Notes: generated from the letters alone by a model not told the origin. Numbered from the stretch's first letter, positions 3,238 to 23,300 are shown. The stretch is 32,000 bases of DNA from Geobacter sulfurreducens PCA (GCF_000007985.2 NC_002939.5:3300001-3332000); one strand, 5' to 3'. A program made the numbers and translations.

Positions 3238-3253
3238 CGCCCATGACGGCCGG

Positions 3254-4921: not shown

Positions 4922-4960
4922 AAAAAAGACGCGCGACTCTCTGCCGCGCGTCTTTGCGTT
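4922..4960. terminator. Bidirectional intrinsic terminator between the convergent HDOD gene and flaG
   Basis: A 10-bp GC-rich stem, AAGACGCGCG (4926-4935) paired with CGCGCGTCTT (4945-4954), has a 9-nt loop. It is flanked by an A6 run on the left (T-run on the minus strand) and TTTGCGTTT on the right. Confidence 0.65.
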
Positions 4961-5081
4961 TCAGTCAATACCCGATTTATTACACTGGATCAAACACCCT
5001 GCCGGCAGACGGAATTCAACGCTCCGTCGCTCCCCTCTTCCCCGCCCGGCACGATGCCGCCACAGCGACGCTCAGCGCATA

Positions 5082-5462
5082 TCAGGCCTTTTCCCGGATA
5101 ATGAGCCCCTTGAGCTCGTCAAGCATCCTGGCGATCTTGAGCACCTCTTCCGCGGGGATCTGCCGGATCACCTCACCGCTTTCCCGTGCCAGGACCTTGA
5201 CGACCGTTCTGTTGGTGTCCTTGTCCACCGAGAATTCGAGATCACGGCTGACCGACTCGATGAACTCGTTGATCCGTTCAGTCGCCTCCTTGACCCGCTC
5301 CTCTTCGCTCTTGCCCTTGTCACTCTCCTTCTCGGGCTCACGAGCCTGCTCCACGGGCCGCGCCGCGCGCTTTTCCTCTTCATCCTGCCGTGACTTGGCC
5401 ACGATTGTCGGAACAACCGCAACCGCGGAAGGCCCTGTTCCACTGGTGGCTTCGATGTTCAT
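5082..5462 (-). CDS. flaG: Flagellar protein FlaG
   Basis: A 126-aa protein with an acidic/lysine-rich middle and a C-terminal LEFSVDKDTNRTVVKVLARESGEVIRQIPAEEVL block typical of the FlaG family. Confidence 0.85.
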   Translation of the reverse strand: MNIEATSGTGPSAVAVVPTIVAKSRQDEEEKRAARPVEQAREPEKESDKGKSEEERVKEATERINEFIESVSRDLEFSVDKDTNRTVVKVLARESGEVIRQIPAEEVLKIARMLDELKGLIIREKA

Positions 5463-5502
5463 GGCATCTCTCCCTGAAAATATAACACTCCCTATGACCT
5501 CA

Positions 5503-5528
5503 TATCGGATGACTGCAGGGAAACTTTA
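5503..5528 (-). promoter_or_regulatory. Sigma28 (FliA)-type promoter of flaG
   Basis: The minus strand reads TAAAGTTT-ccctgcagtca(11 nt)-tCCGATAT, compared with the enteric consensus TAAAGTTT-N11-GCCGATAA. It lies about 40 nt upstream of the flaG ATG. Confidence 0.65.
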
Positions 5529-5548
5529 GCAGGAAAATGACAGTGGAC

Positions 5549-5590
5549 AAAAAAACGAAGAGAGGAAGCCCGGTGCTCCCTCTCTTCGTT
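5549..5590 (-). terminator. Intrinsic terminator of the giant peptidase gene
   Basis: The minus strand forms a 12-bp stem, AACGAAGAGAGG ... CCTCTCTTCGTT, followed by a T5-7 run. It lies 30 nt after the stop at 5621. Confidence 0.75.
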
Positions 5591-5620
5591 CTGACAGGCT
5601 TCGTCCTTCGGGTAACGACC

Positions 5621-8600: not shown

Positions 8601-9355
8601 CAGGAGGCGGTGGTCGCCGTCGTCTGCCAGGCGCCAAGCGCGTTTTTGGCAATCACGTCCACCGTGTGGGAGCCGGCGGCCAGCGCGGATAGGCTGATCT
8701 TCGTGGCAATTGGCGTTTCAGCCGACCAAGTGCCATTGTCGAGCCGGAATTTGTATGCAACGGCCGTAGCCCCCCCCACCGTGATGGCTGCGACCGTTGC
8801 CTTGGTCCTGGCGGCCGGCACACCTGTCAGCGCTGCCACGGGAGGAAGCTGGTAAACCAGGCTCTTCACTGCTTCCGCATTGCCGGCCTGATCCACGGCA
8901 AAAAACTTGAGTGTGGACGTGGGAGTCACCGTGATGGGCCCGCTGTACTGGGGCGAGGCGGTCGTCGGCGTTGTTCCATTGGTGGTGTAGTAAATGGTGG
9001 CGGTTTCACTGGAGGAAAGGGTCACGGTCTGGGCGGCGGCATAGGTCCCACCCGCCGGAGAGGCCGTCGTCACCGGCTTGATGGTGTCAACATCCCAGGA
9101 AACAGTGGTAGGCGAAGCCGTGGACTGCCAGTTTCCTGCGGCATCTTTGCCGACAACCGAAAGGGTATAGGAACCATTTACCAACCCCACGATATTCATG
9201 GAGGTCTTAACCGGGATCTCGGCCGACCAGGCACCGCTATTGATCTTGTACTTGTATGAAACGACGTCGCCGCCGTTCACGCCAAAGCCGAACGTGGTCG
9301 CCTTGGTCGGACCCGCCAGGGGGCTGTTGGCCACAACCACCGCCACCGGCGCAAC
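5621..9355 (-). repeat. In-frame tandem coding repeat of 7.5 units, 486-501 bp each (162-167 aa: Ig-like domain plus CHB_HEX_C-like domain)
   Basis: The conserved 24-mer encoding the (F/Y)FA(V/I)D block starts at 5921, 6416, 6908, 7406, 7907, 8393 and 8888. The spacings are 495, 492, 498, 501, 486 and 495 nt. The units are diverged at both protein and DNA level. Confidence 0.85.
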
Positions 9356-11098
9356 CGTGTCGAGGTCAATGGTATCGTAGTAGCTGGACGACTCGATCTG
9401 GAGGTTGTCCCGGAACTGGGCATAAACCGTCTTCTCGCCGTCGCTGGCAGGGATGGTCCAGCCGGTCCTGGTGGTTTTGTACGCTTCCCAGGCGCTCCAG
9501 GTGGCGTCATCGTTGCTGAAGCGCATCTGGGAGACCGGGTTGGCCCCGCCCCCCGCCGTGAGGTTCAGGGTAACGGTCGTAGAATTGGTGGCCGCGGCGC
9601 CGCCGTTGATCTTGACGGTCCCCGAGGGAGCAGCGGCGCCGATGCTGAACGCTGCCGTCACCTGGTTGCCGGAACGGGTGATATTGGTGACCGTGACACC
9701 GGTATTGAGCCCCCCGTAGCTCCTGCTCGACGGAACCGTGGCCGGACCGAAGGAAGCACCGGGAACGTAGTAGTCCCCCGCGTCGGCAGTGTTGTAGGAA
9801 AGGTTCTTCTCTATCTCCTCCAGGCCGTCGGCCTCCATGAGCCGCAGCAGTTTGCGGGCGGTGTCCGAATTGTTATAGAGGTAGTTGGTCCCGGAGGAGT
9901 TGAGTGTCGCATCCACATGCCAGATGAGGAGCCCGTCGTTGGGGTAGTGGACGTCGTTGCCGGCGCGGTGCCGGTTCTGGACCAGGAAATACTCGTCGAA
10001 GAGGTCGCTGGAGGTGATCCCCGGCATGATGAGGACCGCGTCGGTGGAGGTGGCGGAGGGGTTGAGGGTAATGGTCTGGGAGCCGCCGGCCACCACCACC
10101 GGGTCGATCCAGTCCAGAACCCACTTGCTGAAGGCGCTGTGGTCCCCCCAGTTGTGGTCCATCATGTCGAGGCCGCCAACCCCGCCCTTGGGTCCTGCAG
10201 TAGCACTGTAGTCGTAGTAGTCGGGAAGCCCCAGGGCATGGCCGGTCTCGTGAATCGTGACCAGGGGGCCGAACTGCTGACCGTAGGGGCTCCCCTCCCA
10301 CTGCCAGGAGTACTTGCCGAGGCGCTTCCCGTCGAGGAGATAGTTGAAGTCCGAAAACGAGGTGGCGTAGCCCCACCAGAACGATGCCCAGGGGCCGGCC
10401 GGCCCGGTCCAGATCACGAGGAAGTAGTCGATCTTGCCGTCGCTGTTGTTGTCGTACTGGGAGAAGTCGTGGCCCTGGGTATTAAAGTAGTTGAGGGCCT
10501 CCTTGATGAGGTTCTCGCGGCCGGCGGGCGTCTGGGTTACTGCACTCCGGCTGTAGCCGGGCCGGTACCACCCCAGCGTCGTCCCGCCGGAAAAATCGAG
10601 AAGGCCGTAGGATGAGCGGCTGTAGAATGCGGCGAGACTCTCGTAGGGGGCTTCGGCTGGGTTACCGGCGCCGAAGAGCTTGTCATGGACCGTGGCCTGG
10701 GGCGTTACGGCAGGGTAATCGGAGAAGTCGATGAGGAGGGCAAAGAGTTTCACGCTGCCAGTGGTGGGCATGCCGCTCCAGGCGGGAGGCGGTGCGTAGG
10801 CTCCCGCCATCTGGTCGGCCTCGTTTGCCGTGAACCCCTGCTGGCGGAGGGCTTTCTTCTTAGCCTTGTTGACGGCCCTCTTCACCAGCTCGGGATCAAT
10901 CTTGTGGTTGCCGATCTCCTCGGCGAACTTTTTCCGGTTCTCGAACTCGCCCGACTCCTTGAGCCGCTCGATCTCGCCCGGCTCCGGGAGTTGCATGGCC
11001 ACAGCCGCCCCCCCGAAGAGCAGCAGGGCAGAAACCACAACCACCAGTCCACCGCGCATTACAGCCAGCCGCCAAATCCCTCTCCCCCAACTTCCCAT
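5621..11098 (-). CDS. Giant secreted M6-family (immune inhibitor A-like) zinc metallopeptidase with 8 Ig-like and 7 chitobiase/hexosaminidase-C-like (CHB_HEX_C) tandem domains. It is 1825 aa from the chosen start.
   Basis: HETGHALGLPDYYD (HEXXH coded at 10238-10252) is in an InhA-like N-terminal region. The predicted Sec signal peptide is MGSWGRGIWRLAVMRGGLVVVVSALLLFGGAAVA/MQ. The motif ETATIYYTTNGTTPTTAS..Y.GPI...LKFFAVDQAGNAE recurs 7 times. The start is set at ATG 11098, 8 nt after GGAGG, because the ORF-track start 11236 lies upstream of the putative promoter. Confidence 0.85.
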   Translation of the reverse strand: MGSWGRGIWRLAVMRGGLVVVVSALLLFGGAAVAMQLPEPGEIERLKESGEFENRKKFAEEIGNHKIDPELVKRAVNKAKKKALRQQGFTANEADQMAGAYAPPPAWSGMPTTGSVKLFALLIDFSDYPAVTPQATVHDKLFGAGNPAEAPYESLAAFYSRSSYGLLDFSGGTTLGWYRPGYSRSAVTQTPAGRENLIKEALNYFNTQGHDFSQYDNNSDGKIDYFLVIWTGPAGPWASFWWGYATSFSDFNYLLDGKRLGKYSWQWEGSPYGQQFGPLVTIHETGHALGLPDYYDYSATAGPKGGVGGLDMMDHNWGDHSAFSKWVLDWIDPVVVAGGSQTITLNPSATSTDAVLIMPGITSSDLFDEYFLVQNRHRAGNDVHYPNDGLLIWHVDATLNSSGTNYLYNNSDTARKLLRLMEADGLEEIEKNLSYNTADAGDYYVPGASFGPATVPSSRSYGGLNTGVTVTNITRSGNQVTAAFSIGAAAPSGTVKINGGAAATNSTTVTLNLTAGGGANPVSQMRFSNDDATWSAWEAYKTTRTGWTIPASDGEKTVYAQFRDNLQIESSSYYDTIDLDTVAPVAVVVANSPLAGPTKATTFGFGVNGGDVVSYKYKINSGAWSAEIPVKTSMNIVGLVNGSYTLSVVGKDAAGNWQSTASPTTVSWDVDTIKPVTTASPAGGTYAAAQTVTLSSSETATIYYTTNGTTPTTASPQYSGPITVTPTSTLKFFAVDQAGNAEAVKSLVYQLPPVAALTGVPAARTKATVAAITVGGATAVAYKFRLDNGTWSAETPIATKISLSALAAGSHTVDVIAKNALGAWQTTATTASWTVDLAAPVTTASLAAGIYKPGQTVSLSASETATVYYTTNGTTPTTASAKYSAPLAINTSTTLKFFAVDQAGNAEAIKTNIYTITLVSGTPPTTTKLATATLTVAGIGVSAYKYSLDGGALSAEIPVATKISLTALGTGLHTVSVIGKTAAGVWQVAPTAVSWTVEQTAPTTTASPAGGTYAASQTVTLTADETATIYYTITGLAPTTSSAKYTGPITVAPTKVLKFFAVDQAGNAEAVKTEIYALPVTAIIAGTPAAKTKYTTATLTVGGSGVVAYKRSVDGGAWSAETPVATKIALTGLAAGAHRVDVIAKNAAGGWQDDQAPTTVQWTVDLTPPVTTASPAGGTYATPQTVNLSADETATIYYTTNGTTPTTASAKYVGPIPLPATATLKYFAIDPAGNAEAVKTQSYALPPLAVINGVPVASKATSVTLTIGGVGVVAYKYKLDGGSWSAEIPVATKTAITGLSEGAHTVSVIGKSVAGTWQATSVASSKSWIVDLTAPTTAASLAAGVYKGGQAVTLSPDETATVYYTTNGTTPTTASAKYTAPLTVNATSTLKFFAIDTAGNVEAVKTFSYVIVTLAGAPGGTTKLTSATLTVGGSGVAAYKFKLDNGAWSAETPLATKISLAGLAAGTHTVSVVGRNGSGVWQANADATTASWTVEVAPPVTSASPAGGTYDAPQVVTLSANETATIYYTLTGAAPTTASSKYAAPVSVAPGKTLKFFAVDQHGNAEAVKTEIYAPSPLAVLSGTPATFSRATSATLTVGGTGVVAYRWKLDSGAWSSETPVATKIVLSGLASGSHAVAVLGKNLVGTWQDVPTAVAWTVDISAPVTTASVPGGTYASAQSVELYSSETATIYYTVNGAAPTTASPKYTGPIVIGTTQSLKYFAVDQAGNVEGVKAQSFTIKPAAVINGIPADPTTATTATFTVGGPYVVSYKYKLDNGVWSVEIPVTQARSLAGLADGTHMLSVLGKNAGGTWQTVETTAVWTIQ

Positions 11099-11203
11099 GA
11101 CAGTACCTCCATACATCTGAATGGCCCCGTCCCTGGGAAGTATGCTTGACAAACACTCCAGCGGGAGAATCGTTGTTTTCCCATTATTTACATATATCGG
11201 CAG

Positions 11204-11230
11204 GTACGGAGAAAACTTTACATCTATTCG
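11204..11230 (-). promoter_or_regulatory. Near-consensus sigma28 (FliA) promoter of the giant peptidase gene
   Basis: The minus strand reads TAAAGTTT (11230-11223), tctccgtacct (11 nt), then GCCGATAT (11211-11204), compared with TAAAGTTT-N11-GCCGATAA. It lies about 100 nt upstream of ATG 11098. Confidence 0.7.
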
Positions 11231-11300
11231 ATTCAACGAAATCGATATCGAGGAACTACTCCAAGCTATTTAGGTGAACGCGGAGGAACTGACTAACCAA

Positions 11301-11316
11301 TGTCACAAAATTGACA
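11301..11316. promoter_or_regulatory. Inverted repeat TGTCA-N6-TGACA, a candidate transcription-factor or enhancer-binding site in the divergent control region
   Basis: TGTCAcaaaatTGACA has perfect 5-bp arms. The inner 14-mer GTCACAAAATTGAC resembles the FleQ box as I recall it (GTCaNTAAAtTGAC). A half-site AATTGACAC recurs at 11508-11516. Confidence 0.3.
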
Positions 11317-11550
11317 CAAGGCTAGACAAAGAGAAATACTCTCTCCCTCAATACCGAAGCATGCATTTTGTCTGAGGTCAGAACGTATAAGCGTTCAAGT
11401 CAGAATCAAAATTAGAGAAATCCCTCTAAAACAAACTACAAAACGGCGAGCCGCAATTATTTCGCCCCAACAGCATTCAACATTTTGACCCACAAAAGCA
11501 AAATCGCTAATTGACACGCAATTCTTGCAACTTACATCACACCAAGCCGT

Positions 11551-11566
11551 CGGCACGTAGGTTGCA
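11551..11566 (+). promoter_or_regulatory. Sigma54 (RpoN) -24/-12 promoter at the head of the glycosylation gene train
   Basis: cGGCACGtaggTTGCA matches TGGCACG-N4-TTGCW at all core positions except the first T. It lies 60 nt upstream of ATG 11626. An IHF-like ATTCAAcattTTG sits at 11475-11487. Confidence 0.55.
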
Positions 11567-11625
11567 GTCACTATTCCTGACAATATATCCTTGGACTAAT
11601 AGTCCACAACCCCGGAGAACCGACC

Positions 11626-11820
11626 ATGACCAATAATTTTGCCCTTATCGGCGCAGGTGGCTACATCGCACCCCGTCATCTCCAAGCAATCAGGGACACC
11701 GGCAACCGGCTCGTGGCGGCTCTCGAAAAGAGCGAATCTGTGAGAATTCTCGACCGACACTTCGACAATGTCTCGTTTTTCGTCGAGTTCGAGCGGTTCG
11801 ATCTCCACGCGGTCGCCTGA
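11626..11820 (+). pseudogene. Truncated N-terminal remnant (64 codons) of a Gfo/Idh/MocA NAD-dependent sugar oxidoreductase (WbpB-like)
   Basis: MTNNFALIGAGGYIAPRHLQAIRDTGNRLVAALEKSESVRILDRHFDNVSFFVEFERFD matches the Rossmann N-terminus of WbpB-type UDP-sugar 3-dehydrogenases, which are about 310-350 aa. The frame ends five codons after FERFD. The RBS GGAGA is intact. Confidence 0.65.
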
Positions 11821-11872
11821 CATCATTAGCGCGAAAACGAAAACTCCTTAAGTTTGCATGGAGGATATGTTC

Positions 11873-12631
11873 ATGGGTACATCAGGTATGCAATGCGAAA
11901 AGAAATTCCTGGATAAAGCATGCAGCACCTACAAAACTGCTGGCTCTTACCAGCAGCAGGCAATGAAGGACCTTATATTGCGGACTTTTTTGCCCTACAT
12001 GACAAACAATACAAAATCTGTATGTCTGTCTTTGGGATATGCTGAAGGGTATGAGGCTAAGATACTTTCCGAATGCGTGAAAGAACTTGATGTCATAGAA
12101 GGATCTCAGCAATTCTATGAACAAGGATTGGAAGACAACATCGCAAATGTTACACTCCACTATTCCTTATTTGAAGATTTTATACCTGAGAACAACAAAA
12201 AGTATGATTACATTTGTGCTAATTATGTGCTCGAACACGTTGAAAACGTTACCATTGTTCTGTCGTCTTTGAAAGAGATGCTTAAAGATGACGGATTGAT
12301 TTTTTCAGTTGTCCCCAATGCCCGAGCGTTTTCACGTCAACTTGCACTCCACATGGGCCTTATCGATGATCTTAAGGGCCTTACCGAAAACGACATCAAC
12401 CATGGACATAGGAGAGTGTACGATCGGGTAGCATTCAATCGCGATCTGGAAGGAGCCGGACTTTCAATAATCGCTCAAGGCGGTATAATGCTCAAACCCC
12501 TTGCGGATTTTCAGATGGACAAGCTCATTGATACTGGAATCCTCCAGACAGAACACCTCAACGGACTCTACAGGCTGGGAATGGAATATCCTGATTTTTG
12601 CAGTGCCTTATATGCCATTTGCAAAAAATAG
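11873..12631 (+). CDS. Class I SAM-dependent methyltransferase
   Basis: YDYICANYVLEHVENVTIVLSSLKEMLKDDGLIFSVVPN is a Methyltransf_11/23-like post-I/II region. The start is chosen at ATG 11873, 7 nt after GGAGGA; in-frame alternative ATGs are at 11858 and 11867. Confidence 0.75.
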   Translation: MGTSGMQCEKKFLDKACSTYKTAGSYQQQAMKDLILRTFLPYMTNNTKSVCLSLGYAEGYEAKILSECVKELDVIEGSQQFYEQGLEDNIANVTLHYSLFEDFIPENNKKYDYICANYVLEHVENVTIVLSSLKEMLKDDGLIFSVVPNARAFSRQLALHMGLIDDLKGLTENDINHGHRRVYDRVAFNRDLEGAGLSIIAQGGIMLKPLADFQMDKLIDTGILQTEHLNGLYRLGMEYPDFCSALYAICKK

Positions 12632-12671
12632 TATTTGTACACAGCTTGGTATTTTCAGGGATGGCGATTCA

Positions 12672-14630
12672 ATGAACAAGCGCAAGATCGATATGCTCAT
12701 GAAAGACTGCTATGAGCTGACTGTCACTGCCCTCACAATCAGAAAAGTTGAAGAACGTCTATTGGAGCTCTTTTCTGAAGGAGTACTCAACGGAACAATC
12801 CACACCTGTATCGGACAGGAGTGGACCGGAGTGGCGGTTGCAAACGCACTGCAAGCGGGAGATACAGTTTTCTCCAATCACCGCGGTCATGGACATTATA
12901 TTGCCCTGACTGGTGATGTTTATGGACTTATCGCAGAAATCATGGGCAAAGACGACGGTGTCTGCGGAGGCGTTGGAGGTAGCCAGCATCTACATACAGA
13001 AAACTTCTTCTCTAACGGGATTCAAGGCGGAATGGTGCCGGTCGCGGCTGGAAGAGCCTTGGCAAACGCGCTTCAAGGCAACAATGCAATTTCAGTGGTT
13101 TTTATCGGAGATGGAACTCTTGGAGAAGGTGTTATCTATGAAACGTTTAACATCGCATCCAAATGGCAGTTGCCACTGTTAGTTGTCCTGGAAAACAATC
13201 AGTACGCTCAGTCCACACCCACATCCCTGACATTGGCAGGCAATATACGGGACCGCGTACGTGGCTTCGGCATAGAATATATCAAGTGTGACACATGGGA
13301 CATCGCCGGGCTGCTTGACTCTGCAAAAGAGGCCGTTGATTGCGTACGCAAGAACCAAAAGCCTGTATTGCTCGAAATTGATACATACCGGCTGAAAGCC
13401 CACTCGAAGGGAGATGATCTTAGAGACCCTGTAGAGATCAGCCGCTACGCTGGGCAGGACAGCATAAATGCTCTACTGGAATCTGACGTTCCAAGAGTCG
13501 CTGAAACCGTCAATCAAATCGACAGCAATATCCAACAGGCAATCACCAAAGCCAGGGAAGCGACATTATGTTCTTTCGCTCCGGCATCGAACAGTGTTCG
13601 ACAGTATCAATCAGTTACGTGGAGAACTGAATCCTTTGCCAGACAAAGAATAATCACCTCAATCAATTTATCATTGCAATCGCTTCTGGAAAACAACTCT
13701 AAGGCAGTAATTATCGGGGAGGACATTGAAGCCCCCTACGGAGGAGCTTTCAAAGCCACAAAGGATCTGAGTACGTTGTTCCCGGGAAGAGTCAAGAACA
13801 CCCCCATCAGCGAGGGAGCGATTACAGGCGTAGGCATCGGTCTGGCACTGAGCGGATTTCTTCCCGTTGTGGAGATAATGTTCGGCGACTTCATGACTCT
13901 AACCTTTGACCAACTGCTTCAACACGCCGGTAAATTCTGTGAGATGTATGGCAAGGATCTCGACGTACCCTTGATCATTCGCACTCCCATGGGCGGACGT
14001 CGGGGTTATGGCCCAACACACAGCCAATCTTTGGAGAAATTTTTTCTCGGCATACCGAATCTGGAGGTCATTGCGTACAACCATAGAGTTTCTCCCGCCC
14101 TGATCTTTGGAAATCTGTGCAAGACGATCCGCAGGCCAACTCTCATCATCGAAAACAAGGTCCTCTATACTCAGCACGTAGACAGTACTCCCATGCCTGG
14201 ATTCCGCATCAATATTTCCGACGAACTATTCCCAACCGTCAGAATATCGCCAAGTACCGGAGATCCGCAAGTGACGCTTGTCTGTTACGGGGGAATGCTT
14301 GCGGAGGTTGAGATAGCCGCAGCCGCGGCTTTCGACGAAAACGAAATACTCTGCGAGATCATATGTCCGAGCATTATCAATCCTCTCAATGCATACCCCA
14401 TTCTTGAGTCGGCACGGAAAACCAGGAGGCTGATAACCGTAGAAGAAGGACCGAGCATAGCCGCCCTGGGCAGCGAGGTAGCCGCCCGAATACTTGAACA
14501 TTCGCTTCCCATTGCCCATTACAGTCGTATCGGTTACGACTCTACCATTCCATCATCAGCCAGCCGTGAATCCAGATTGATAACAAATGCCGAATCAATC
14601 TTTGAACGTATTGTGGAGATTTTCAAATGA
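12672..14630 (+). CDS. Single-chain TPP-dependent 2-oxoacid dehydrogenase E1 component (fused alpha and beta subunits)
   Basis: The alpha half has HTCIGQEW...NHRGHGHYIA and the TPP motif GDG (13107-13115)...ENN (13191-13199). The beta half has AVIIGEDIEAPYGGAFKATKDL...NTPISEGAITGVGIGLALSGFLPVVEIMFGDF. The start at ATG 12672 avoids overlap with the upstream gene. Confidence 0.85.
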   Translation: MNKRKIDMLMKDCYELTVTALTIRKVEERLLELFSEGVLNGTIHTCIGQEWTGVAVANALQAGDTVFSNHRGHGHYIALTGDVYGLIAEIMGKDDGVCGGVGGSQHLHTENFFSNGIQGGMVPVAAGRALANALQGNNAISVVFIGDGTLGEGVIYETFNIASKWQLPLLVVLENNQYAQSTPTSLTLAGNIRDRVRGFGIEYIKCDTWDIAGLLDSAKEAVDCVRKNQKPVLLEIDTYRLKAHSKGDDLRDPVEISRYAGQDSINALLESDVPRVAETVNQIDSNIQQAITKAREATLCSFAPASNSVRQYQSVTWRTESFARQRIITSINLSLQSLLENNSKAVIIGEDIEAPYGGAFKATKDLSTLFPGRVKNTPISEGAITGVGIGLALSGFLPVVEIMFGDFMTLTFDQLLQHAGKFCEMYGKDLDVPLIIRTPMGGRRGYGPTHSQSLEKFFLGIPNLEVIAYNHRVSPALIFGNLCKTIRRPTLIIENKVLYTQHVDSTPMPGFRINISDELFPTVRISPSTGDPQVTLVCYGGMLAEVEIAAAAAFDENEILCEIICPSIINPLNAYPILESARKTRRLITVEEGPSIAALGSEVAARILEHSLPIAHYSRIGYDSTIPSSASRESRLITNAESIFERIVEIFK

Positions 14631-15742
14631 TGAAAACAATGGACATAATCATTCCCAGAGAATTTGTCAGCGACGACCAGTACCTGCTCCAGAAACTCTG
14701 TGTCGTGAACAATGACTTTGTAAAAGAAGGAGAGATACTTGCCCTGATCGAATCATCAAAATCTGTCATTGACGTTACGAGTCCGGCTGATGGCTATGTC
14801 TATTTTTTCTCTGACGAAGGAGACATTGTGAGTGTCGGCGAGAGGTTGGCCTTGCTCGCATCAACCAAGGAGGCATTACAGGTTGAAATAGAGAATTCCA
14901 ACAAGAACTCTCAGCGTCGCAAGGAGAGTGAGACAAAGAGCGAGGACGTTTCATTGTCTGGCGTGAGGTGCTCCAAGAAGGCATTGCTTCTGATGAAACA
15001 GCACAATATCGATGTAGGAGCATTTGATGGTCTCGGGATGGTTACGGCGCAGGACGTAGAGCACTATCTCTCCAGCAGGGAAAAAGCCGTTAAAGCGACA
15101 GTAGCTCCATCTTCCGTAAATAGGCAGAAAATCATCATCCTTGGTGGCGGAGGACATTCAAAAGTATGCATAGACATACTGCGCCAGGCACAATCTTTCA
15201 CAATCGCAGGAATTCTCGACTCTATCCAGGACATTGGCGCAGAAGTGCTGGGAATCCCGGTCATTGGAAGAGACACAATGCCGGAACTACTCAAGACCAG
15301 AGAGAGTGGCATCTCCCTTGCGGTTAACGGGATTGGACTCATTCCGGATCACCGGAACAGATGCAAGCTTTTTGAGAGGCTATTGGAGGCCGGCTTTCAT
15401 CTCCCTAACCTCATACACCCCAAGGCATCAATCGAACCTTCGGCAAAACTCGGCGAAGGGAACCAGATCATGGCAGGAGCCATTATCGGGAGCGATGTCA
15501 CAGTAGGAAACTACTGTCTCATAAACTCGGGAGTCGTCGTCTCGCACGACTGTATCATCGACGACCACGTCCACCTGGCCCCCGGTGCGCTGCTTGCAGG
15601 AGCAGTCAGAGTTGGAAGAAACTCTTTGATCGGCATGGGCGTTACAATCTACGCAAAAGTAACAATAGGAAGCAACGTAGTTATAGCCAACGGCGCCAAC
15701 GTGTTTCACGATGTGCCGGACAACACCGTCGTCAAGATTTGA
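14627..15742 (+). CDS. Fusion protein: lipoyl-attachment domain, then peripheral-subunit-binding domain, then NeuD/PglD-family left-handed beta-helix sugar N-acyltransferase
   Basis: aa 5-80 carry GEILALIESSKSVIDVTSPADGYV, with the candidate lipoyl-Lys45 codon at 14759-14761. aa 112-148 read KKALLLMKQHNIDVGAFDGLGMVTAQDVEHYL. aa 167-371 carry KIIILGGGGHSKVCIDIL...IHPKASIEPSAKLGEGNQIMAGAIIGSDVTVGNYCLINSGVVVSHDCIIDDHVHLAPGA... hexapeptide repeats. There is an ATGA overlap with the E1 stop. Confidence 0.82.
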   Translation: MMKTMDIIIPREFVSDDQYLLQKLCVVNNDFVKEGEILALIESSKSVIDVTSPADGYVYFFSDEGDIVSVGERLALLASTKEALQVEIENSNKNSQRRKESETKSEDVSLSGVRCSKKALLLMKQHNIDVGAFDGLGMVTAQDVEHYLSSREKAVKATVAPSSVNRQKIIILGGGGHSKVCIDILRQAQSFTIAGILDSIQDIGAEVLGIPVIGRDTMPELLKTRESGISLAVNGIGLIPDHRNRCKLFERLLEAGFHLPNLIHPKASIEPSAKLGEGNQIMAGAIIGSDVTVGNYCLINSGVVVSHDCIIDDHVHLAPGALLAGAVRVGRNSLIGMGVTIYAKVTIGSNVVIANGANVFHDVPDNTVVKI

Positions 15743-15757
15743 CGTAATGGTTGCCAA

Positions 15758-16948
15758 ATGAATATGAACCCTAATGCAAGTTTCGACAATATGACTGAAT
15801 CCAGCGCCCCCCCTTCATTCAAGGAAAAACTCCACGTTGGGCGCCCCAATGTCGGCAATCGGGAAGCACTTCTTGCCCGCATCAACGACATGCTCGACCG
15901 CCGTTGGCTCACCAATAACGGTCCTTTTGTCCAAGAGCTCGAGCAAAAAATGAGTGAGTTTCTCGGCGTTCGAAACTGCATCGCCATGTGCAATGCAACC
16001 ATCGCCCTCGAGATCACCACCCGGGCACTCGGCATGAGCGGCGAGGTGATAGTGCCTCCGTTCACTTTCGTGGCGACCGCTCACGCTTTGCAATGGCAGG
16101 AGATAACCCCCGTATTCTGCGACATCGACCCGACGACCCACCATATCGATCCCAAGAAGATCGAATCAATGATCACGCCCCGCACAACCGGCATCGTCGG
16201 AGTTCATCTCTGGGGACGCCCTTGTGCAGTCAACACCCTTACGGAGATAGCAGCAAAACATAAGTTAAAACTTATCTTCGACGCGGCTCACGCTTTCGGC
16301 TGCTCGCACGGCGGCCGAATGATAGGCGGCTTCGGCGACGCAGAGGTGTTCAGCTTCCATGCCACCAAGTTCTTCAATACCTTCGAGGGGGGACTCGTCG
16401 CAACCGACAATGACGAGTTGGCCCAGAAGATCAGGCTCATGAAGAACTTCGGCTTCGAGGGTTACGACAACGTCATCTATATTGGCACCAACGGCAAAAT
16501 GACGGAGATCTGCGCGGCCATGGGGCTCACGAACCTTGAAAGCCTCGACGAGTTCATCCAGACCAACCACACCAACTATTACCGTTATCGTCAGGGGCTC
16601 TCCGGGCTGCCGGGCGTGTCGGTGATTGAGTACAACGAGGCCGAACGGAACAATTATCAATACGTGGTACTGGAGATCGACGAGAAGATGGCGGGAGTAT
16701 CCAGAGATCGTTTGGTAGAGGCACTCCATGCGAAAAACGTCATCGCCCGGAGGTATTTCTACCCAGGCTGCCACCGGATGGAACCGTATCGCTCGTACTT
16801 TCCACACTCACGGCTGCTCCTGCCGAAGACAGAAAGATTGGCGAGACGGGTCATGCTGCTGCCGACGGGCACGGCAGTCGAACTGGAGCATATTGATGCA
16901 ATCTGCGTTCTCATAAAACGAATCATCAACGGCTCCATACTCTCCTAG
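15758..16948 (+). CDS. DegT/DnrJ/EryC1/StrS-family PLP-dependent sugar aminotransferase
   Basis: NATIALEI, FDAAHAFG and FSFHATKFFNTFEGG (PLP lysine) motifs in a 396-aa protein. Sugar specificity cannot be determined by eye. Confidence 0.9.
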   Translation: MNMNPNASFDNMTESSAPPSFKEKLHVGRPNVGNREALLARINDMLDRRWLTNNGPFVQELEQKMSEFLGVRNCIAMCNATIALEITTRALGMSGEVIVPPFTFVATAHALQWQEITPVFCDIDPTTHHIDPKKIESMITPRTTGIVGVHLWGRPCAVNTLTEIAAKHKLKLIFDAAHAFGCSHGGRMIGGFGDAEVFSFHATKFFNTFEGGLVATDNDELAQKIRLMKNFGFEGYDNVIYIGTNGKMTEICAAMGLTNLESLDEFIQTNHTNYYRYRQGLSGLPGVSVIEYNEAERNNYQYVVLEIDEKMAGVSRDRLVEALHAKNVIARRYFYPGCHRMEPYRSYFPHSRLLLPKTERLARRVMLLPTGTAVELEHIDAICVLIKRIINGSILS

Positions 16949-16972
16949 ACATGAAACAGGAATAGCCACGTT

Positions 16973-19900
16973 ATGATCTGTCACATTGCTTTCGAAAGCG
17001 ACTACTCTTTCGCGCTACACAACCTGCTCTTGAAACACTTCGATATCAACGAGCATATTTTTCTGATATGCGGCAGAGCCTCATGGGATTCGACGAAACA
17101 ATTTCAATACAGAAACAGCGTTAAGGTCGCAGACCTGAACTCTCAGGAAGTCCGGCGACTCCTCTGCGAGTCGGAACAGATTATTATTCATGGCTTATTT
17201 TTCGGGGAAGTGGTCGACTACTTTCACCGCAACCAGGATCTTCTGCCCAAGACCAGTTGGAAGCTCTGGGGCGGCGACCTTTACTGTTACAGGAATGCAG
17301 GAACGACAGACTTTCCTGCTGAATATGAGGAGAAAAGGAGACAGGTCATCCGGAACTTCGGTCGGATAATCTGTGTCTTAGAGGAGGATTATCAACTCGC
17401 CCGACAGGTATACGACACCAAGGCCACCCGTGCACATGGGTTCTACCCGTTGCTGCTCAATTACGACTACCTTGATTCGCTACGAAAACCTCGCGCTCCG
17501 TCGGAGATAATCACCGTTCAAGTCGGCAACTCTGCAACACGCGAAAACTGCCACGAAGAAGCATTCGAACACCTCATCCATCTCGACAACGACAACATGA
17601 GAGTCTGCTGTCCCCTCTCCTACGGTGACAAATCCTATGGCAACGAGATTATTCGGTTGGGGATGAAACTGTTCGGAAGTCGGTTCTGCCCCCTGACCGA
17701 TGTTCTCCCATTCAAGGAGTATTCCGACCACCTCAGCTCAGTTGATGTCGCCGTTATGAACCACAACCGTCAGCAAGGGCTCGGCAACACAGTAGCGTTG
17801 TTGTATCTCGGCAGGAAAGTATATATGCGGCATGACACGACGTCCTACAGTTGGCTGATGAAACACGGAATCACCGTCTACGATATGCGGAATTTGGGGC
17901 ATGCTTCATTTGCCGAGTTTTCGCATATTGAAGAGGATGTGGCGGCGCGAAACACAGAGATCATCGGCAGGGAATTCTCGGACGATGCATGCGTAAAGCT
18001 ATGGAAGTCAATTTTCAGCTCAAAGGGAAGACAATCTAAGATGACGGTACCGAATGAGAAGGGTTCACTAATTCAAAAACTCAAGCACCAATATTTCCCC
18101 GGCTCCAACTTCGTAGGCCCTTACGAGCAAAACGGCCACGCCCCATCCATCTATGAAGAGCAGTGGCTGTGGGCACATCGCCATCTGATCAAAGGAACCG
18201 TCCTTGACATGTCCACACCCCGTTATTGGCACGAATTCATTCATACCATGGAATCGGTTTCTCGTGTCGTCATCAGCGAGATGGGATGCGACACCGTAAC
18301 CAAATACGGCAAGAGCTCATCGGTAGACATAGTAGCCGATTTCTGCGATCCGAATCTGCCAGTGGCTCCGGAAACGTTCGACACCATCCTCTGCCTGAGC
18401 ATCCTGGAACACTGCACCAATCCCTTGTCCATGGTAAATAATCTTTACAAGTTACTCCGCCCCGGAGGCACCGTTTTCTTCTGGGCACCCTTCGCCTACA
18501 TCGATGGGCACCTTGAGCCTGACTATTGGCGTTTCGGGCGTGACGGCTTCCGTCTTCTGGTCAAACAGGCTGGGTTTGAAATCATGGAAGAAGGAAACTT
18601 CGGGGACCTCGGAAAATATTTCCTCCAAGAATTTGGATTTGATGCATCAGCACGGAACGGTCATCGTGGTGTGCCCTGCGCCAACTGGATTATCTGCAAA
18701 AAACCGCAGGATACCAGGACCCTCCCCAAGCCTACACATGGGATCTCGACGAGCGCGGGGAACTCACCCCTCCGCCTTTACGCCGGCGACATCCCCAACC
18801 GCCCCGAGTACGAAGGCTGGCTCGGCCTCTCGCTAACCCAGGAAAACGACCGCCATATCCGGCACGACATCACCCGACCCCTTCCCTTCGCCGACAACTC
18901 GGTGGACGCTTTCCAGGCTGAAGATGTGCTGGAGCATATCGCCTATGACCGGATCGTCCCCGTTCTTAACGAAATCCATCGTGTACTCAAACCGGGCGCA
19001 GTGTTCCGGCTCTCCGTCCCCGACTATCGTTGCGATATCCTTGACGCCAGAACGGAAAAGGACGCAACGGGAGCGCCCGTCTTCGATCCCGGCGGAGGAG
19101 GTACCAGAGAAAATCCGGGGCACGCCTGGTTCCCCCGCTACGAGACGGTTAAGACCCTGGTCGAAAAATCTAATTTTGGAACAGCGGGAGAAATTTCATT
19201 CCTTCACTACTACGACGAGCATAACCTTCCGGCGATGCGGGAGATCGACTATGCGAAGGGATTTATTCAGAGGCCCCCGGACCACGACCCGCGGGTGCAA
19301 ACACCCTACCGTCCGATGTCTCTAGTCGTAGACCTGACAAAAAGAGACGTAAGAATATTTTCTTCATTCAACAACTCCGCATCTCACGCGAATACGAATG
19401 TTGGCGGCACCGATGCTCACTCCATCGCCGAAACCGCAAGCCGAATATTGCAGGCGGGTGAAAAGCTCTATTCTGAAGGATACACCGCAGATGCAGAGGG
19501 ATGCTTCAACGCTCTCCTCGTCATGCAAGAGCCGCTTGCCACCGCCCACAACAATCTTGGCGTAATCCACCAGGGCCGCCATGAACTCGATAACGCTCTT
19601 GAACACTTCAGATCAGCACTGGCCCTCATGCCGTCACATCGGGAGGCACGTGAAAACATCAAAGCCACCCTTTCATCTGAAAGCATCTATCCCTATGAGG
19701 GGAATCGGTCCAGATCCAATCATTACAATGAAGACTACTTCAATTGGCAAAAGAACATCGGTGCGTTCGGCGGAAGAGCCAACCTCTTTAAGTTCAGCGA
19801 ATTCATAACACCTTCCGACACTATACTCGACTTCGGCTGCGGAGAAGGATATCTCCTCTCAAACATCACCTGTGCAAGGAAGATCGGAGTAGAACTGAAC

Positions 19901-20347
19901 GAAGCAGCCCGAAGAACCGCATGGGCACAGGGGGTAGAAGCATTCGCGTCTCCGGAGGAGATCCCCTTTGGAACTGCAGACCTGGTGATCTCCAACCACG
20001 CGCTGGAACATGTGCTGTCACCGCTCGAAACGCTCCAAGCCCTGATCAAGACGCTCAAGCCGGGGGGGATGACCGTTTTTGTCGTCCCCCACCAGGATAC
20101 ACGGGAAGAATACAATCCCGACGACATCAACATGCACCTCTACACCTGGAACCAGTTGACGCTGGGCAATCTGTTCCGGCAGGCAGGATTCTCTGTTGAA
20201 CGCGTCGAGGCGATCCAGCACCAATGGCCGCCCAATTTCGCAGAGGTCTATGCCCAGGTCGGCGAAGCGGAATTTCACCGGATATGCCGGCAAACGGCTA
20301 TTCAGAACAATAATTACCAGATTCGGATAGTTGCCCGCAGAAAGTGA
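16973..20347 (+). CDS. Multidomain protein: WecF-like (GT56, 4-alpha-L-fucosyltransferase family) glycosyltransferase, two divergent class I methyltransferase-like modules, TPR and one canonical class I methyltransferase
   Basis: aa 1-350: IIHGLFF, WKLWGGDLY (17258-17284), VQVGNSATRENCHEEAF and NHNRQQGLGNTVALLYLG resemble E. coli WecF blocks. aa 400-545: FDTILCLSILEHCTNP..LLRPGGTVFF. aa 600-760: PLPFADNSVDAFQAEDVLEHI..VLKPGAVFRLSVPDY. aa 825-900: TPR-like. aa 915-1090: ILDFGCGEG (19823-19849)...LKPGGMTVFVVP. Confidence 0.72.
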   Translation: MICHIAFESDYSFALHNLLLKHFDINEHIFLICGRASWDSTKQFQYRNSVKVADLNSQEVRRLLCESEQIIIHGLFFGEVVDYFHRNQDLLPKTSWKLWGGDLYCYRNAGTTDFPAEYEEKRRQVIRNFGRIICVLEEDYQLARQVYDTKATRAHGFYPLLLNYDYLDSLRKPRAPSEIITVQVGNSATRENCHEEAFEHLIHLDNDNMRVCCPLSYGDKSYGNEIIRLGMKLFGSRFCPLTDVLPFKEYSDHLSSVDVAVMNHNRQQGLGNTVALLYLGRKVYMRHDTTSYSWLMKHGITVYDMRNLGHASFAEFSHIEEDVAARNTEIIGREFSDDACVKLWKSIFSSKGRQSKMTVPNEKGSLIQKLKHQYFPGSNFVGPYEQNGHAPSIYEEQWLWAHRHLIKGTVLDMSTPRYWHEFIHTMESVSRVVISEMGCDTVTKYGKSSSVDIVADFCDPNLPVAPETFDTILCLSILEHCTNPLSMVNNLYKLLRPGGTVFFWAPFAYIDGHLEPDYWRFGRDGFRLLVKQAGFEIMEEGNFGDLGKYFLQEFGFDASARNGHRGVPCANWIICKKPQDTRTLPKPTHGISTSAGNSPLRLYAGDIPNRPEYEGWLGLSLTQENDRHIRHDITRPLPFADNSVDAFQAEDVLEHIAYDRIVPVLNEIHRVLKPGAVFRLSVPDYRCDILDARTEKDATGAPVFDPGGGGTRENPGHAWFPRYETVKTLVEKSNFGTAGEISFLHYYDEHNLPAMREIDYAKGFIQRPPDHDPRVQTPYRPMSLVVDLTKRDVRIFSSFNNSASHANTNVGGTDAHSIAETASRILQAGEKLYSEGYTADAEGCFNALLVMQEPLATAHNNLGVIHQGRHELDNALEHFRSALALMPSHREARENIKATLSSESIYPYEGNRSRSNHYNEDYFNWQKNIGAFGGRANLFKFSEFITPSDTILDFGCGEGYLLSNITCARKIGVELNEAARRTAWAQGVEAFASPEEIPFGTADLVISNHALEHVLSPLETLQALIKTLKPGGMTVFVVPHQDTREEYNPDDINMHLYTWNQLTLGNLFRQAGFSVERVEAIQHQWPPNFAEVYAQVGEAEFHRICRQTAIQNNNYQIRIVARRK

Positions 20348-23300
20348 GCATAACGCCAATGAATACCACGCCCGTCATTCTTGTTTGCTACAATAGGCCG
20401 CACCACACGGCGGAGATGCTCAAGGCCCTTGAGGTCCACAATATCCAGAACCTGATCATTTTCGCCGATGCACCCAAATCGGACAAGGACGTGGAGGGAG
20501 TTCGCGCAACAAGGAAACTGCTCGAAGGCATCCGGTGGACCCACCCCGAAATCGTATTCCAGACAGAAAACCAAGGGCTCGCAAAATCAATCGTTTCGTC
20601 TGCGAATTATGCTTTTTCACTACATGACCGGCTGGTCCTGCTTGAAGATGATTGCGTACCCCAACGCCACTTCTTCGACTTCATGTCAAACTGCCTGGAC
20701 AGGTACGAAGAAAATGAGAAGATTTTCGGCATCAGCGGATACACGGTTCCGATCCCGTCCAGACTGCAGGAGCAACACCCCTATGACCTCTATTTCTATC
20801 CTCGCATTGGCAGTTGGGGATGGGGAACGTGGAAACGGGCATGGCAACATTACGACACCGATCTCGTAAAGCTTTGCCGGAAAGCTCTGGAATCAAACAT
20901 CGACTTAACGCAAGGAGGTGTTGATATCCCGGTCAACATTGAGGGACTTCTTCGCGGGACATTGAAGGATGTGTGGACCCTGAACTGGGTTCTCACCGTA
21001 TATCTCAACAAGGGCTATTACATCTACCCCACCAAGTCCCACATCAACAACATAGGATTCGATGGCACCGGTGTCCACTGCGGAAAATCCGACCTTTTCC
21101 AAACCATTCTTGCCGATTCACCCGCAATTCGGTTCCCGTCGGATGTGGTCCTGAACTATGACCTTATCAGTCATTACAATATGTATTTCGGAGGTCCTGT
21201 TGTAACTCCGCCCCCAAGGGAACCTGCCGGCTTGAACGCCGTTCCCGAGGCTGCATCCAGAAAGGCTCCGCTGAACGTTGCTCTCCTTTCCACCATGGAC
21301 TTCGGTGGTGCCGGCAAAGCAACCCATCGTCTCCTCAGGGGTCTTCAGGCGTACGGCAGCGACGCACTGATGGCTGTGCTATGTAAAAGCACAGAAGATC
21401 CATCCATAAAGCTGTTGAGCAATTCTGCCGGAGGTTTGACGACTGTCTCAGCCGAAGGTGCAGGACGATGGGAAGAACTCTTCCGGAAGTGGCGCGGACA
21501 GTTGGCAGGCTATACAAACCGGCCGGAAGGACTTGAAATTTTTACCGACTCCCGTTCCCGGTTCTCCCTGGAGGATATCCCCGAACTCCAGAGAGCCGAC
21601 ATACTCAACTTTCACTGGATGGCCGGACTGCTCAACTATCCGACGTCTTCCTCGGCCCTGAAGGGAAAAAAAATCGTCTGGACCCTCCACGACATGAATC
21701 CCTTCACCGGCGGCTGCCACTATGCCGGCGAGTGCACCGGATATCTCCGCTCATGCGGTACGTGTCCCCAACTCGGTTCCAGTGACAAAGAAGATCTTTC
21801 ACGAAAAATTTGGGAAGACAAACGGGCCGCGTACGCCGACCTGGACCTGACTATCGTAACCCCGAGTCGCTGGCTGGCTGAATGCGCCCGCAACAGCTCG
21901 CTCCTTTCCCGCTTCCCGGTCCACGTCATACCCAACGGACTCCCCACGGACATTTTCCGCCCACATCCGAAGGACGAGCTCCGCCGGTCGTTCAACATCC
22001 CCGAACACGCCCGGGTGATATTGTTCGGTGCCGATTATGATACCCGTCGCAAAGGTTTCCACTATCTTGTAGATGCCCTGAGAGCTCTTCCCGACAAGCG
22101 CAACCTGGTGCTCGCGTCATTCGGGCCTCTCCCGGAGACCAAGTTCAGCAGCGAATTCCTCACGATGAACTTCGGTTCGATCTCCAATGAGACTCGCCTA
22201 GCCCAAATCTACAGCCTTGCCGATCTCTTTGTCCTACCGTCAATGGAGGACAACCTCCCGAACACAGTCATTGAGTCGATGGCCTGCGGAATACCGGTGG
22301 TCGGCTTCAAGATCGGGGGCATGCCCGACATGATCGAACACAAGGTGAACGGCTACCTGGCTCAACCAGGGGATGTCACAGGGCTCACTGAGGGAATCCG
22401 TTGGTGCCTCGCAAATGCATCAGCACTCAAACTTGGCGAACGGTGCAGGGAGAAGGTTGAGCTGGAGTATTCCCAGCGGGTTCAGGCTGAGAGCTATACC
22501 AACCTCTATGAGAACATACTCCTAGGGAAAAGTGCCGTCAAATCTTTGGCAGCACCTGCCTGTTCGGCGGACTCGATCCTCATCGCCGCCAACCTGGTCC
22601 CCTTCCGGGACGCGGGGCAGCGGCAACGGCAGGATACCGGCATAGCTAGCATCACCGCCCTTGTAGCGAAGGGCATCATTCCCCTCAACATCTGCTACCC
22701 GGACGAACTCCTAGAGCCGGCCGACTGGCAGACAGCAACAATGCTCGAGCGCAGCGCGAACGTAGAACTGAAGATCGACGGCAAGCGCAAGCCGTTCGTC
22801 ATCGACCTCTTCGATATCGCCGCCCAGTGGGCAACAGCCCACGGAATTACGTGGTTCGCCATCACCAACAGCGATATCGTCCTGACAGACGCGCTCATCG
22901 CCGAGTTGCGGCGCCTTCAAGCCGACGGCATCGAAACGGTTGCCATCTCACGCAACGAGGTGGAACGGGTGGAGGGGGACGGCAGGCTCGTCCCTGGCTA
23001 CCTGGAGGTGAACGGCTACGATATCTTCCTCTGCAGGAGCTCCTGGTGGCAGTCGAACCGTCACCGCTTCCAGCCATATATCTACGGCGAACGGGCCTGG
23101 GACGACGCCTACGCGGCCATCATGGCATGCCACTCTCGCTTCGCCATGCTCTACCAGGACGGCCTCTGCTTCCACTTCAAGCACCCGACCAGCTGGATCT
23201 CCGGCCCATACTCCGACTACAACATGGGGCTCTATACCGGCATCGACAAACCTTACAGCGACCGATACGAGGCGTTCATTAAGGAGGTGCTTGCCCTGAC

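Follow-up and report, generated by a model that had tools for sequence, protein, structure and literature searches.

Why should a glycan locus carry the first enzyme of a 2-oxoacid dehydrogenase directly in front of a sugar acyltransferase? This question is raised by a stretch of 32,000 nucleotides from Geobacter sulfurreducens PCA (GCF_000007985.2 NC_002939.5:3300001-3332000), which we call the window and in whose coordinates the Geobacter positions are given. Three co-directional open reading frames (ORFs) on its plus strand encode a 2-oxoacid dehydrogenase E1 with fused alpha and beta halves, a fusion protein (14627-15742) that joins a lipoyl domain and a peripheral-subunit-binding domain (PSBD)-like segment to a left-handed beta-helix (LbH) N-acyltransferase, and a DegT-type sugar aminotransferase. 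We propose, with a probability of roughly 60%, that the E1 and the lipoyl-PSBD-LbH protein form a small 2-oxoacid-dehydrogenase-like machine in which the coenzyme A (CoA)-forming core of the E2 component has been replaced by an N-acyltransferase of the PerB/PglD type. Such a machine would probably put an acyl group derived from a keto acid straight onto an amino sugar without CoA, and an E1-loaded lipoyl arm feeding the fused N-acyltransferase appears, from sequence and predicted structure, to be the best fit to everything that we computed.

The N-terminal half of the fusion protein reads like the start of an E2. The Pfam domain Biotin_lipoyl matches residues 23-76 with 28.6 bits (cut-off 22.1), and the region aligns with the lipoyl domains of E2p and E3BP. 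The first-pass annotation, made from the DNA sequence alone, had proposed a lipoyl domain with a candidate lipoyl-lysine here, and the proposal holds: the candidate is Lys45, whose AAA codon (14759-14761) we read directly, and among the best 120 homologs of the fusion, the set behind all counts out of 120, Lys45 is found in 120/120 and Glu42 in 119/120. The AlphaFold2 (AF2) model of the fusion (mean pLDDT 90.8) has a lipoyl beta-barrel at residues 4-78 (pLDDT >88), a helix at 81-99, PSBD-like helices at 117-125, 130-133 and 141-156, and then the Rossmann plus beta-helix body, with disordered linkers of low pLDDT (101-109 and 158-163) joining the folded domains. The PSBD that had been claimed behind the lipoyl domain is recovered at the profile level and not from the single protein. 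When solved structures are searched with a profile built from this segment, PSBDs come up (1w4i, E 1.1e-6; 2btg, E 1e-3), and the loop of the segment is three residues shorter than theirs. A profile of the entire lipoyl-PSBD half aligns over its full length with canonical E2 proteins; Pfam E3_binding gives no match for the window protein and weak matches in 7/28 relatives. The PSBD-like domain may recruit the E1 rather than, or besides, the E3 component.

The C-terminal half is that of a sugar N-acyltransferase. PglD_N covers residues 168-248 (43.6 bits) and is followed by Hexapep (73.7 bits; both Pfam), the NCBIfam model NeuD_NnaD (TIGR03570) is matched with 194.5 bits against a cut-off of 160.8, and the E2 core with its chloramphenicol acetyltransferase (CAT)-like fold (2-oxoacid_dh, PF00198) has no match in the fusion at E <= 0.01. 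On both counts, the E2 acyltransferase core has been swapped for a NeuD/PglD-type Rossmann plus LbH unit, as the first reading of this DNA had it. The best solved relative is PerB of Caulobacter (4ea7; E 1.3e-49, 39% identity, Foldseek TM-score 0.90), a GDP-perosamine N-acetyltransferase, and next nearest to the PglD_N plus LbH part are PglB, PglD and VioB. His307-Asp308 of the fusion (histidine codon at 15545-15547) is aligned to His141-Asp142 of PerB, and the PerB mutant chains H141N and H141A differ at exactly the His307 column; His307 is kept in 120/120 homologs and Asp308 in 112/120.

The fused family also has residues of its own. Met337 and Asn355 are each present in 120/120 fused proteins, where PerB and other unfused relatives have Val or Ala, and the two stack 18 residues apart on successive coils of the helix after Pro319. 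Ser306 stands where Asp or Glu is usual, and E270 and N279 are further residues specific to the fused family. The GGGGH motif of the nucleotide-binding PglD_N domain is kept throughout the fused proteins. Separately, we considered Cys181 (GGGGHxKxC), invariant in the first 32 sequences, as a catalytic cysteine and rejected it, the position being Val or Ile in 5/37 fused domains and Val in PerB. Four of the five fused domains that lack it come from Myxococcales or Lujinxingia; most unfused relatives retrieved have the cysteine, but the retrieval pattern itself contained it.

Upstream of the fusion, the ORF that had been annotated as a complete E1, with a GDG...ENN motif for thiamine diphosphate (ThDP) and a transketolase-like beta half, proves to have all of these parts. 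Pfam places E1_dh at residues 21-258 (E 1.9e-48), Transket_pyr at 329-499 and Transketolase_C at 531-632, and the ThDP motif begins with GDG at residue 146 and ends with ENN at 174. His44, GDG (146) to Asn176, His244-Ser245, Glu381 and His450 are invariant across 22 members of the E1 family. In alignments with structures from the PDB, His44, GDG...ENN and His244-Ser245 stand opposite human E1 alpha, and Glu381 and His450 (in THSQS) stand opposite the conserved Glu and the HSQS motif of T. thermophilus E1 beta (1um9_B). We take His44 and His244-Ser245 to be the counterparts of His63 and His263-Ser264 in human E1 alpha, and Glu381 and His450 to be those of Glu59 and His128 in human E1 beta; presumably Glu381 activates ThDP, and His244 and His450 serve lipoyl acylation. 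By this comparison, the residues for reductive acylation of a lipoyl-lysine appear to be kept in the E1.

As to the acyl group, the unusual, non-acetyl group suggested earlier gains no support, the alpha half of the E1 being nearest to pyruvate dehydrogenase (PDH) E1 alpha (131 bits, vs 68 bits for the E1 alpha of branched-chain keto-acid dehydrogenase, BCKDH). Across the loci compared, no conserved third gene making a special 2-oxo acid accompanies the pair. At three positions that we assume to belong to the substrate pocket, the E1 departs from human PDH E1 alpha (Thr for Phe61, His70 for Tyr89 and Gln180 for Met200), and these substitutions may leave room for a different small, perhaps polar, substrate.

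The pairing of E1 and fusion is widespread. Proteins with lipoyl, PglD_N and Hexapep domains that cover at least 91% of the query make up no fewer than 120 clusters (at 90% identity); they are 38-47% identical to the query and belong to Gemmatimonadota, Anaerolineae, Armatimonadota, Bacteroidota, Betaproteobacteria, Omnitrophota, Bacillota and others; the named clusters are all called NeuD-family sugar acyltransferases except for one 'hypothetical protein' and one 'UDP-perosamine 4-acetyltransferase'. Scanning species-representative genomes brought up 45 loci, and 3 further loci are metagenomic; we examined 40 loci with the fusion (37 plus the 3 metagenomic ones) and, for comparison, 12 loci with an unfused LbH protein. 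An E1 gene lies immediately upstream and co-directional in all 40 fusion loci (in L032 with the beta half only) and in 0/12 loci with an unfused LbH protein. It is one fused alpha-beta ORF in 31/35 loci and two genes in Myxococcales and Lujinxingia, and in these 35 loci its stop always abuts or overlaps the start of the fusion. The E1 and the lipoyl-PSBD-LbH gene are a conserved, translationally coupled two-gene cassette.

The expectation that the fusion would always occur with both an E1 and a DegT gene in glycan loci stands for the E1 and fails for DegT: a DegT gene is found within 8-10 kb in 16/40 loci, which rules out universal co-occurrence, and seven cassettes from Flavobacteriaceae are linked to nonribosomal peptide synthetase (NRPS) genes. 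Since the E1 is universal and DegT is not, the invariant unit is two genes and not three. A search of the plasmid collection returned matches to the LbH domain only and no fused homolog. As a separate observation, the locus of an uncultured Polaribacter (L032, 9052-10008) has minus-strand genes in place of the missing E1 alpha half, and its cassette may be decaying.

The strongest single piece of contextual evidence comes from Anaerocolumna xylanovorans (L046), where a dedicated, full lipoyl redox system is found in a polysaccharide operon. Its genes are ordered glycosyltransferases, E1, lipoyl-LbH fusion, the lipoate ligase LplA, the dihydrolipoyl dehydrogenase E3, DegT and ABC-2 transporter, with LplA and E3 at 11063-13438 between the fusion and DegT, and the only sense that we find in their presence is that the lipoyl arm turns over catalytically. 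A tblastn search with the Anaerocolumna E3 and LplA located neither in the 32-kb window, in line with the absence that had been claimed, and among 49 loci it placed them near the cassette in L046 only; a general association of E3 or LplA with the cassette is thereby ruled out. Other hosts, Geobacter included, would therefore rely on housekeeping enzymes, and a housekeeping E3 would re-oxidise the arm in most of them.

On the acceptor side, the third Geobacter gene is, as first annotated, a pyridoxal phosphate (PLP)-dependent sugar aminotransferase: it matches DegT_DnrJ_EryC1 (Pfam) at E 9.5e-110, has its PLP lysine at Lys204 in SFHATK, and finds DesI as its best solved relative (2po3, E 7e-121). 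The NCBIfam model PLP_DesI (TIGR04427) is matched with 512.8 bits, below its cut-off of 650. To judge by these relatives, the enzyme probably makes a dTDP-4-amino-4,6-dideoxyhexose. The rmlB gene lies elsewhere in the genome, as GSU2366 (PMC11934962). Beyond the aminotransferase gene, a 1124-aa protein has Glyco_transf_56 at residues 91-283 (58.5 bits, cut-off 25), together with Methyltransf_11, Methyltransf_23 and Methyltransf_12 domains and tetratricopeptide repeats (TPR). Glycosyltransferase family 56 (GT56) is the family of WecF, which uses TDP-4-acetamido-4,6-dideoxygalactose. The DesI-like DegT protein, rmlB and GT56 fit a dTDP-4-acylamido-4,6-dideoxyhexose product, of which the 1124-aa protein is the likely consumer. 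The methyltransferase encoded ahead of the E1 may tailor the sugar; methyltransferases accompany the cassette also in L048, L052 and L021.

Put together, these parts would work as follows. The E1 would decarboxylate a small 2-oxo acid with ThDP, pyruvate (giving acetyl) being the default guess and an acyloin or a ketose being possible, and would reductively acylate lipoyl-Lys45. On the flexible linkers, the S-acyl-dihydrolipoyl arm would swing into the donor groove of its own LbH trimer, where His307 would deprotonate the 4-amino group of a nucleoside diphosphate (NDP)-4-amino-6-deoxyhexose and the acyl group would pass directly to the amine. The acceptor in Geobacter would probably be dTDP-4-amino-4,6-dideoxyglucose, made from the RmlB product by the adjacent DesI-like DegT enzyme. 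E3 would then re-oxidise the dihydrolipoyl arm, as a housekeeping enzyme in most hosts and as an in-operon one in Anaerocolumna, and the N-acyl sugar would go to the downstream GT56-like transferase and into a glycan of the island next to the flagellar genes. We favour direct delivery over a relay through CoA because the cassette has no CoA-forming core and because Met337, Asn355 and Ser306 differ from PerB and the unfused relatives. LpxA and LpxD are LbH acyltransferases that take their acyl group from a carrier-protein thioester, a precedent for LbH enzymes accepting carrier-bound thioesters.

The neighbourhoods of the cassette elsewhere bear on the acceptor. Most contexts are glycan or amino-sugar loci, and so are all seven for which precomputed Pfam annotation is at hand. 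A GDP-perosamine-type set (ManC, Gmd, DegT, ABC transporter) is found in L049 and part of one in L046 (DegT, ABC transporter and a ManC-like gene), PglF/E/D/C-like sets in Lewinella, an epimerase, DegT and PglC-like set in L053, and nonulosonic-acid (NeuB) clusters in L047 and L051; the glycan contexts often include many methyltransferases. Seven Flavobacteriaceae loci, from Dokdonia, Polaribacter and others (L006, L010, L012, L013, L014, L017 and L020), have an NRPS context at about 1-8000 of each: an adenylation protein, a condensation-adenylation-peptidyl carrier protein (C-A-PCP) module, an unknown protein of ~170 aa and a TonB-dependent receptor, then the cassette, with no DegT gene nearby. 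In L008 and L011 the neighbours are an OPT transporter, an M20 peptidase and a radical SAM (S-adenosylmethionine) protein, and in L023 they are GDSL lipases. Three loci have a second LbH-like segment between the fusion and DegT (L016 at 12400-12987, L022 at 11314-11703 and L035 at 11231-11878), which is a separate 215-aa ORF in L035 and in L022 does not share the reading frame of the DegT ORF beside it; these last two, of Lewinella type, also have PglF- and PglC-like genes.

In the same NRPS/TonB context, one further locus (L031, Aquimarina sp., 8845-10612) has a stand-alone LbH protein of 221 aa with the signature of the fused family (SHD, GMG, NG). In its C-terminal half it hardly differs from a fused protein (P0101), and it is preceded, in place of the E1 and the lipoyl-PSBD part, by a protein that we judged by eye to be FemAB-like. 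It looks as if the donor module had been exchanged here.

Several of these findings weigh against our proposal. Loci without recognisable amino-sugar genes within 10 kb (the seven from Flavobacteriaceae, L008, L011 and L023) imply that the acceptor is not always an NDP-sugar, and it is probably not the same everywhere. The PSBD is, as far as its sequence tells, divergent, and E3 and LplA are missing near every cassette searched save that of L046. Use of acetyl-CoA by the LbH half is possible, given that the TIGR03570 threshold is passed, and to our knowledge the characterised members of the NeuD/PglB/VioB family all use acetyl-CoA. In L016, L022 and L035 the stand-alone LbH protein could be the true sugar acetyltransferase; otherwise one pathway there may hold two N-acyltransferases. 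The missing amino-sugar genes would be explained if the same machine served another acceptor, namely the amino group of a peptide, an amino acid or a small molecule, with sugar loci as one use of a portable cassette. The Flavobacteriaceae cassettes that follow an adenylation protein, a C-A-PCP module and a TonB receptor without DegT, the peptide transporter, peptidase and radical SAM neighbours in L008 and L011, and the FemAB-like gene that stands for E1 and lipoyl-PSBD in the NRPS context of L031 all point this way. We nevertheless consider it unlikely, in view of the PglD_N domain kept with its GGGGH motif throughout, the glycan setting of all seven Pfam-annotated contexts, and the DesI-like aminotransferase and GT56 domain next to the Geobacter cassette. 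It is distinctly unlikely, in our estimate, that the LbH domain does the work of an E2 in an unorthodox way, moving the acyl group from dihydrolipoyl to CoA for use by a separate transferase, or that it works on free acetyl-CoA while the lipoyl domain and E1 have a regulatory or scaffold role. Both forms agree with the family threshold and with the second LbH protein beside DegT in three loci, and an LbH trimer could mimic the trimeric core of an E2. Yet we know of no LbH enzyme that catalyses thiol-to-thiol acyl transfer, conservation extends to the N-terminal, sugar-binding domain and to the His-Asp dyad of PerB type, and the remodelling beside the active site, at the stacked positions M337 and N355, is specific to the fused family; a merely regulatory lipoyl domain would leave the strict adjacency of the E1 and the LplA and E3 of L046 unexplained.

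The E1 itself could be a C-C bond former that adds a two-carbon branch to a keto sugar, beside a vestigial lipoyl domain. E1-like proteins do occur in sugar-tailoring clusters, the E1-like pair AviB1/AviB2, with YerE-type chemistry, reportedly being proposed to form branched sugars in antibiotic pathways, and a 4-keto sugar intermediate would be expected in our locus. A vestigial domain, however, is hard to reconcile with a lipoyl lysine in 120/120 homologs, two invariant histidines for lipoyl acylation, a PSBD-like tether and the LplA and E3 of L046, so that we regard this as very improbable. We give the least credence, close to none, to an ordinary catabolic operon for acetoin or another 2-oxo acid that has come to lie in a glycan island by chance. 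What favours it is the PDH-type E1 as nearest relative of the alpha half and a weak match of fusion residues 7-107 to the AcoC model PRK14875 (22.7 bits, cut-off 307). This match is to the lipoyl region alone, however, and neither an AcoC-type, non-LbH core nor a catabolic operon was found in the comparison: the catalytic domain is a sugar N-acyltransferase, no CAT-like core is present in the fusion and no alpha/beta-hydrolase among the genes annotated around the cassette, and the neighbourhoods are biosynthetic across many phyla.

The proposal of an E1-loaded arm that feeds an LbH acyltransferase can be widened. The lipoyl-PSBD profile also retrieves fusions of lipoyl and esterase (PF00756), a longer type of lipoyl-hexapeptide fusion that lacks PglD_N, and a protein with lipoyl domain, E2 core, acyl carrier protein (ACP) and sulfotransferase (representative proteins P0180, P0171, P0174, P0258 and P0184), so the swapping of heads on this scaffold is not unique to the LbH case. 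Given these heads (PerB-type LbH, longer LbH, esterase and E2 core-ACP-sulfotransferase) and an E1 pocket that is polar compared with PDH at the three positions named above, we advance a tentative idea, which we think may be right but would not bet on: lipoyl-PSBD and a dedicated E1 could be a general CoA-independent platform with an interchangeable head, carrying acyl groups from 2-oxo acids, acyloins or ketoses to sugars or peptides. In Geobacter this platform would attach an acyl group other than acetyl, such as propionyl or glycolyl, to the 4-amino-4,6-dideoxyhexose of a flagellum-associated glycan.

How does the cassette compare with known systems? It shares with PDH, 2-oxoglutarate dehydrogenase (OGDH) and BCKDH of the heterotetrameric-E1 type a ThDP-dependent E1 alpha and beta with their catalytic residues, the lipoyl E-x-x-K, a PSBD-like tether and flexible linkers, and in one relative, L046, a dedicated E3 and lipoate ligase. 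Unlike these complexes, it has PglD_N plus LbH in place of the CAT-fold, CoA-dependent E2 core, most members have E1 alpha and beta in one fused chain, its PSBD is without the usual loop and gets a poor Pfam E3_binding score, and it belongs to glycan biosynthesis and not to central metabolism. With PerB, PglD, the PglB acetyltransferase domain (PglB-ATD) and VioB it has in common the two-domain fold, the His-Asp dyad, the position of the oxyanion-hole Gly and the partnership with DegT, whereas the N-terminal lipoyl-PSBD extension of 165 residues, the obligatory E1 neighbour and S306, M337, N355, E270 and N279 set it apart. LpxA and LpxD resemble what we propose here in that an LbH trimer takes an acyl thioester from a protein-bound swinging arm; their carrier, however, is a separate ACP with phosphopantetheine, their acyl groups come from fatty-acid synthesis, and they are distant in sequence (E about 1e-14 to 1e-19).

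Lipoyl arms with a diverted output also have relatives. The acetoin dehydrogenase AcoABC(L) is said to have an AcoC of PRK14875 type with a non-canonical core, and in QncN/QncL/QncM of the quinocarcin and naphthyridinomycin pathways QncL reportedly hands a lipoyl-bound glycolyl group to an ACP. Both combine an E1 with a lipoyl arm whose product is diverted from the standard E2 reaction, as we propose for our cassette, but both are without an LbH domain and without sugar acylation. No ACP domain (PP-binding) was found in the 15 window proteins scanned. The viosamine island of Pseudomonas syringae (vioA, vioB, vioT) reportedly serves flagellin glycosylation, with an unusual acyl group thought to be built by fatty-acid-type enzymes. 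Like the Geobacter locus it has a DesI/VioA-type aminotransferase, a NeuD-family acyltransferase, a glycosyltransferase and methyltransferases beside flagellar genes; it differs in that its acyl group is not attributed to an E1 with a lipoyl arm. The Geobacter window itself contains no flagellin gene.

We found no description of an E1 with a lipoyl-PSBD-LbH protein among 8 million full-text papers or the solved structures, which agrees with the first-pass annotation in knowing of no characterised example, and the same papers yielded no mention of GSU3018-3023. The architecture is thus probably new, assembled from well-known parts and widespread. If our reading is right, protein-bound S-acyl-dihydrolipoyl would be a third class of donor for LbH enzymes beside acyl-CoA and acyl-ACP, and the 2-oxoacid dehydrogenase machinery would gain a new output, an N-acyl sugar in place of acyl-CoA. 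It would make sense of hundreds of genes that occur in glycan loci across many phyla and whose only annotations are 'NeuD/PglB/VioB family sugar acetyltransferase' and 'alpha-ketoacid dehydrogenase subunit alpha/beta', would tie surface-glycan decoration to keto-acid pools and to the availability of lipoate and NAD+, and would give a compact pair of enzymes for N-acylating nucleotide sugars with cheap keto acids as starting material. The proposal is directly testable, Geobacter sulfurreducens being a genetically tractable model organism.

Within the window (Table 1), the three genes are packed as tightly as had been claimed: reading the sequence directly, we find an ATGA stop/start overlap at 14627-14630 and a 15-nt gap at 15743-15757. 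The E1, DegT and GT9 proteins of the window match those of G. sulfurreducens PCA exactly. The locus tags of the three genes are approximately GSU3019-3021, a numbering deduced from an HDOD protein at 3929-4891 that fits the description of GSU3014 and from the cob riboswitch GSU3011.1.

Table 1. Cassette domains and adjacent genes in the G. sulfurreducens PCA window
Feature	Position	Strand	Basis
Fused E1 alpha-beta, 652 aa, AAR36411.1	12672..14630	+	Pfam E1_dh, Transket_pyr, Transketolase_C
Lipoyl domain, residues 1-78 of 371-aa fusion	14627..14860	+	Pfam Biotin_lipoyl, AF2 model
Divergent PSBD-like domain, residues 113-156 of fusion	14963..15094	+	Segment profile, AF2 helices
PglD_N Rossmann-like plus LbH N-acyltransferase, residues 168-371 of fusion	15128..15742	+	TIGR03570, PerB similarity
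DegT/DesI-like PLP sugar 4-aminotransferase, 396 aa	15758..16948	+	Pfam DegT, PDB DesI 2po3
1124-aa multidomain protein: GT56 (WecF-like), 3 methyltransferase domains, TPR	16973..20347	+	Pfam
Class I SAM methyltransferase, first gene of co-directional run	11858..12631	+	Pfam Methyltransf_23 E 5.1e-22

The cassette lies in a glycan island (11237-30918) with a mean GC content of 57%, the three genes themselves having 49-55%. This is below the 62% of the left flank and suggests that the island was acquired horizontally. Beyond the cassette the island encodes giant multi-glycosyltransferase, methyltransferase and TPR proteins and a GT9 glycosyltransferase. Directly after the GT9 gene come flbD, motA and motB (window 30984-31262 and 31283-32000, plus strand; L050 11620-13493), which puts the island at the edge of a flagellar gene cluster. 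A scan of 11000-21000 for promoters and terminators gave counts at chance level and no indication of operon boundaries.

Some minor observations concern the rest of the window. A 242-aa ORF on the minus strand (31259-31987) is probably spurious. At the left edge of the low-GC island, a 64-codon ORF (11627-11819, plus strand) encodes an N-terminal Rossmann fragment like that of a Gfo/Idh/MocA sugar oxidoreductase with an early stop and is probably a gene remnant. Just upstream of the island, a 1871-aa protein (5621-11236, minus strand) has seven pairs of CHB_HEX_C_1 and Fn3_assoc repeats and a metalloprotease-like N-terminal region with HExxH; it could be secreted or displayed at the surface and is a possible glycosylation target. 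Finally, the two giant proteins encoded within 16973-27549 (plus strand), of 1124 aa and 2401 aa, have an unusual density of glycan-building domains per polypeptide, the larger one combining several GT1/GT4 and GT2 domains with ~400 residues of TPR.

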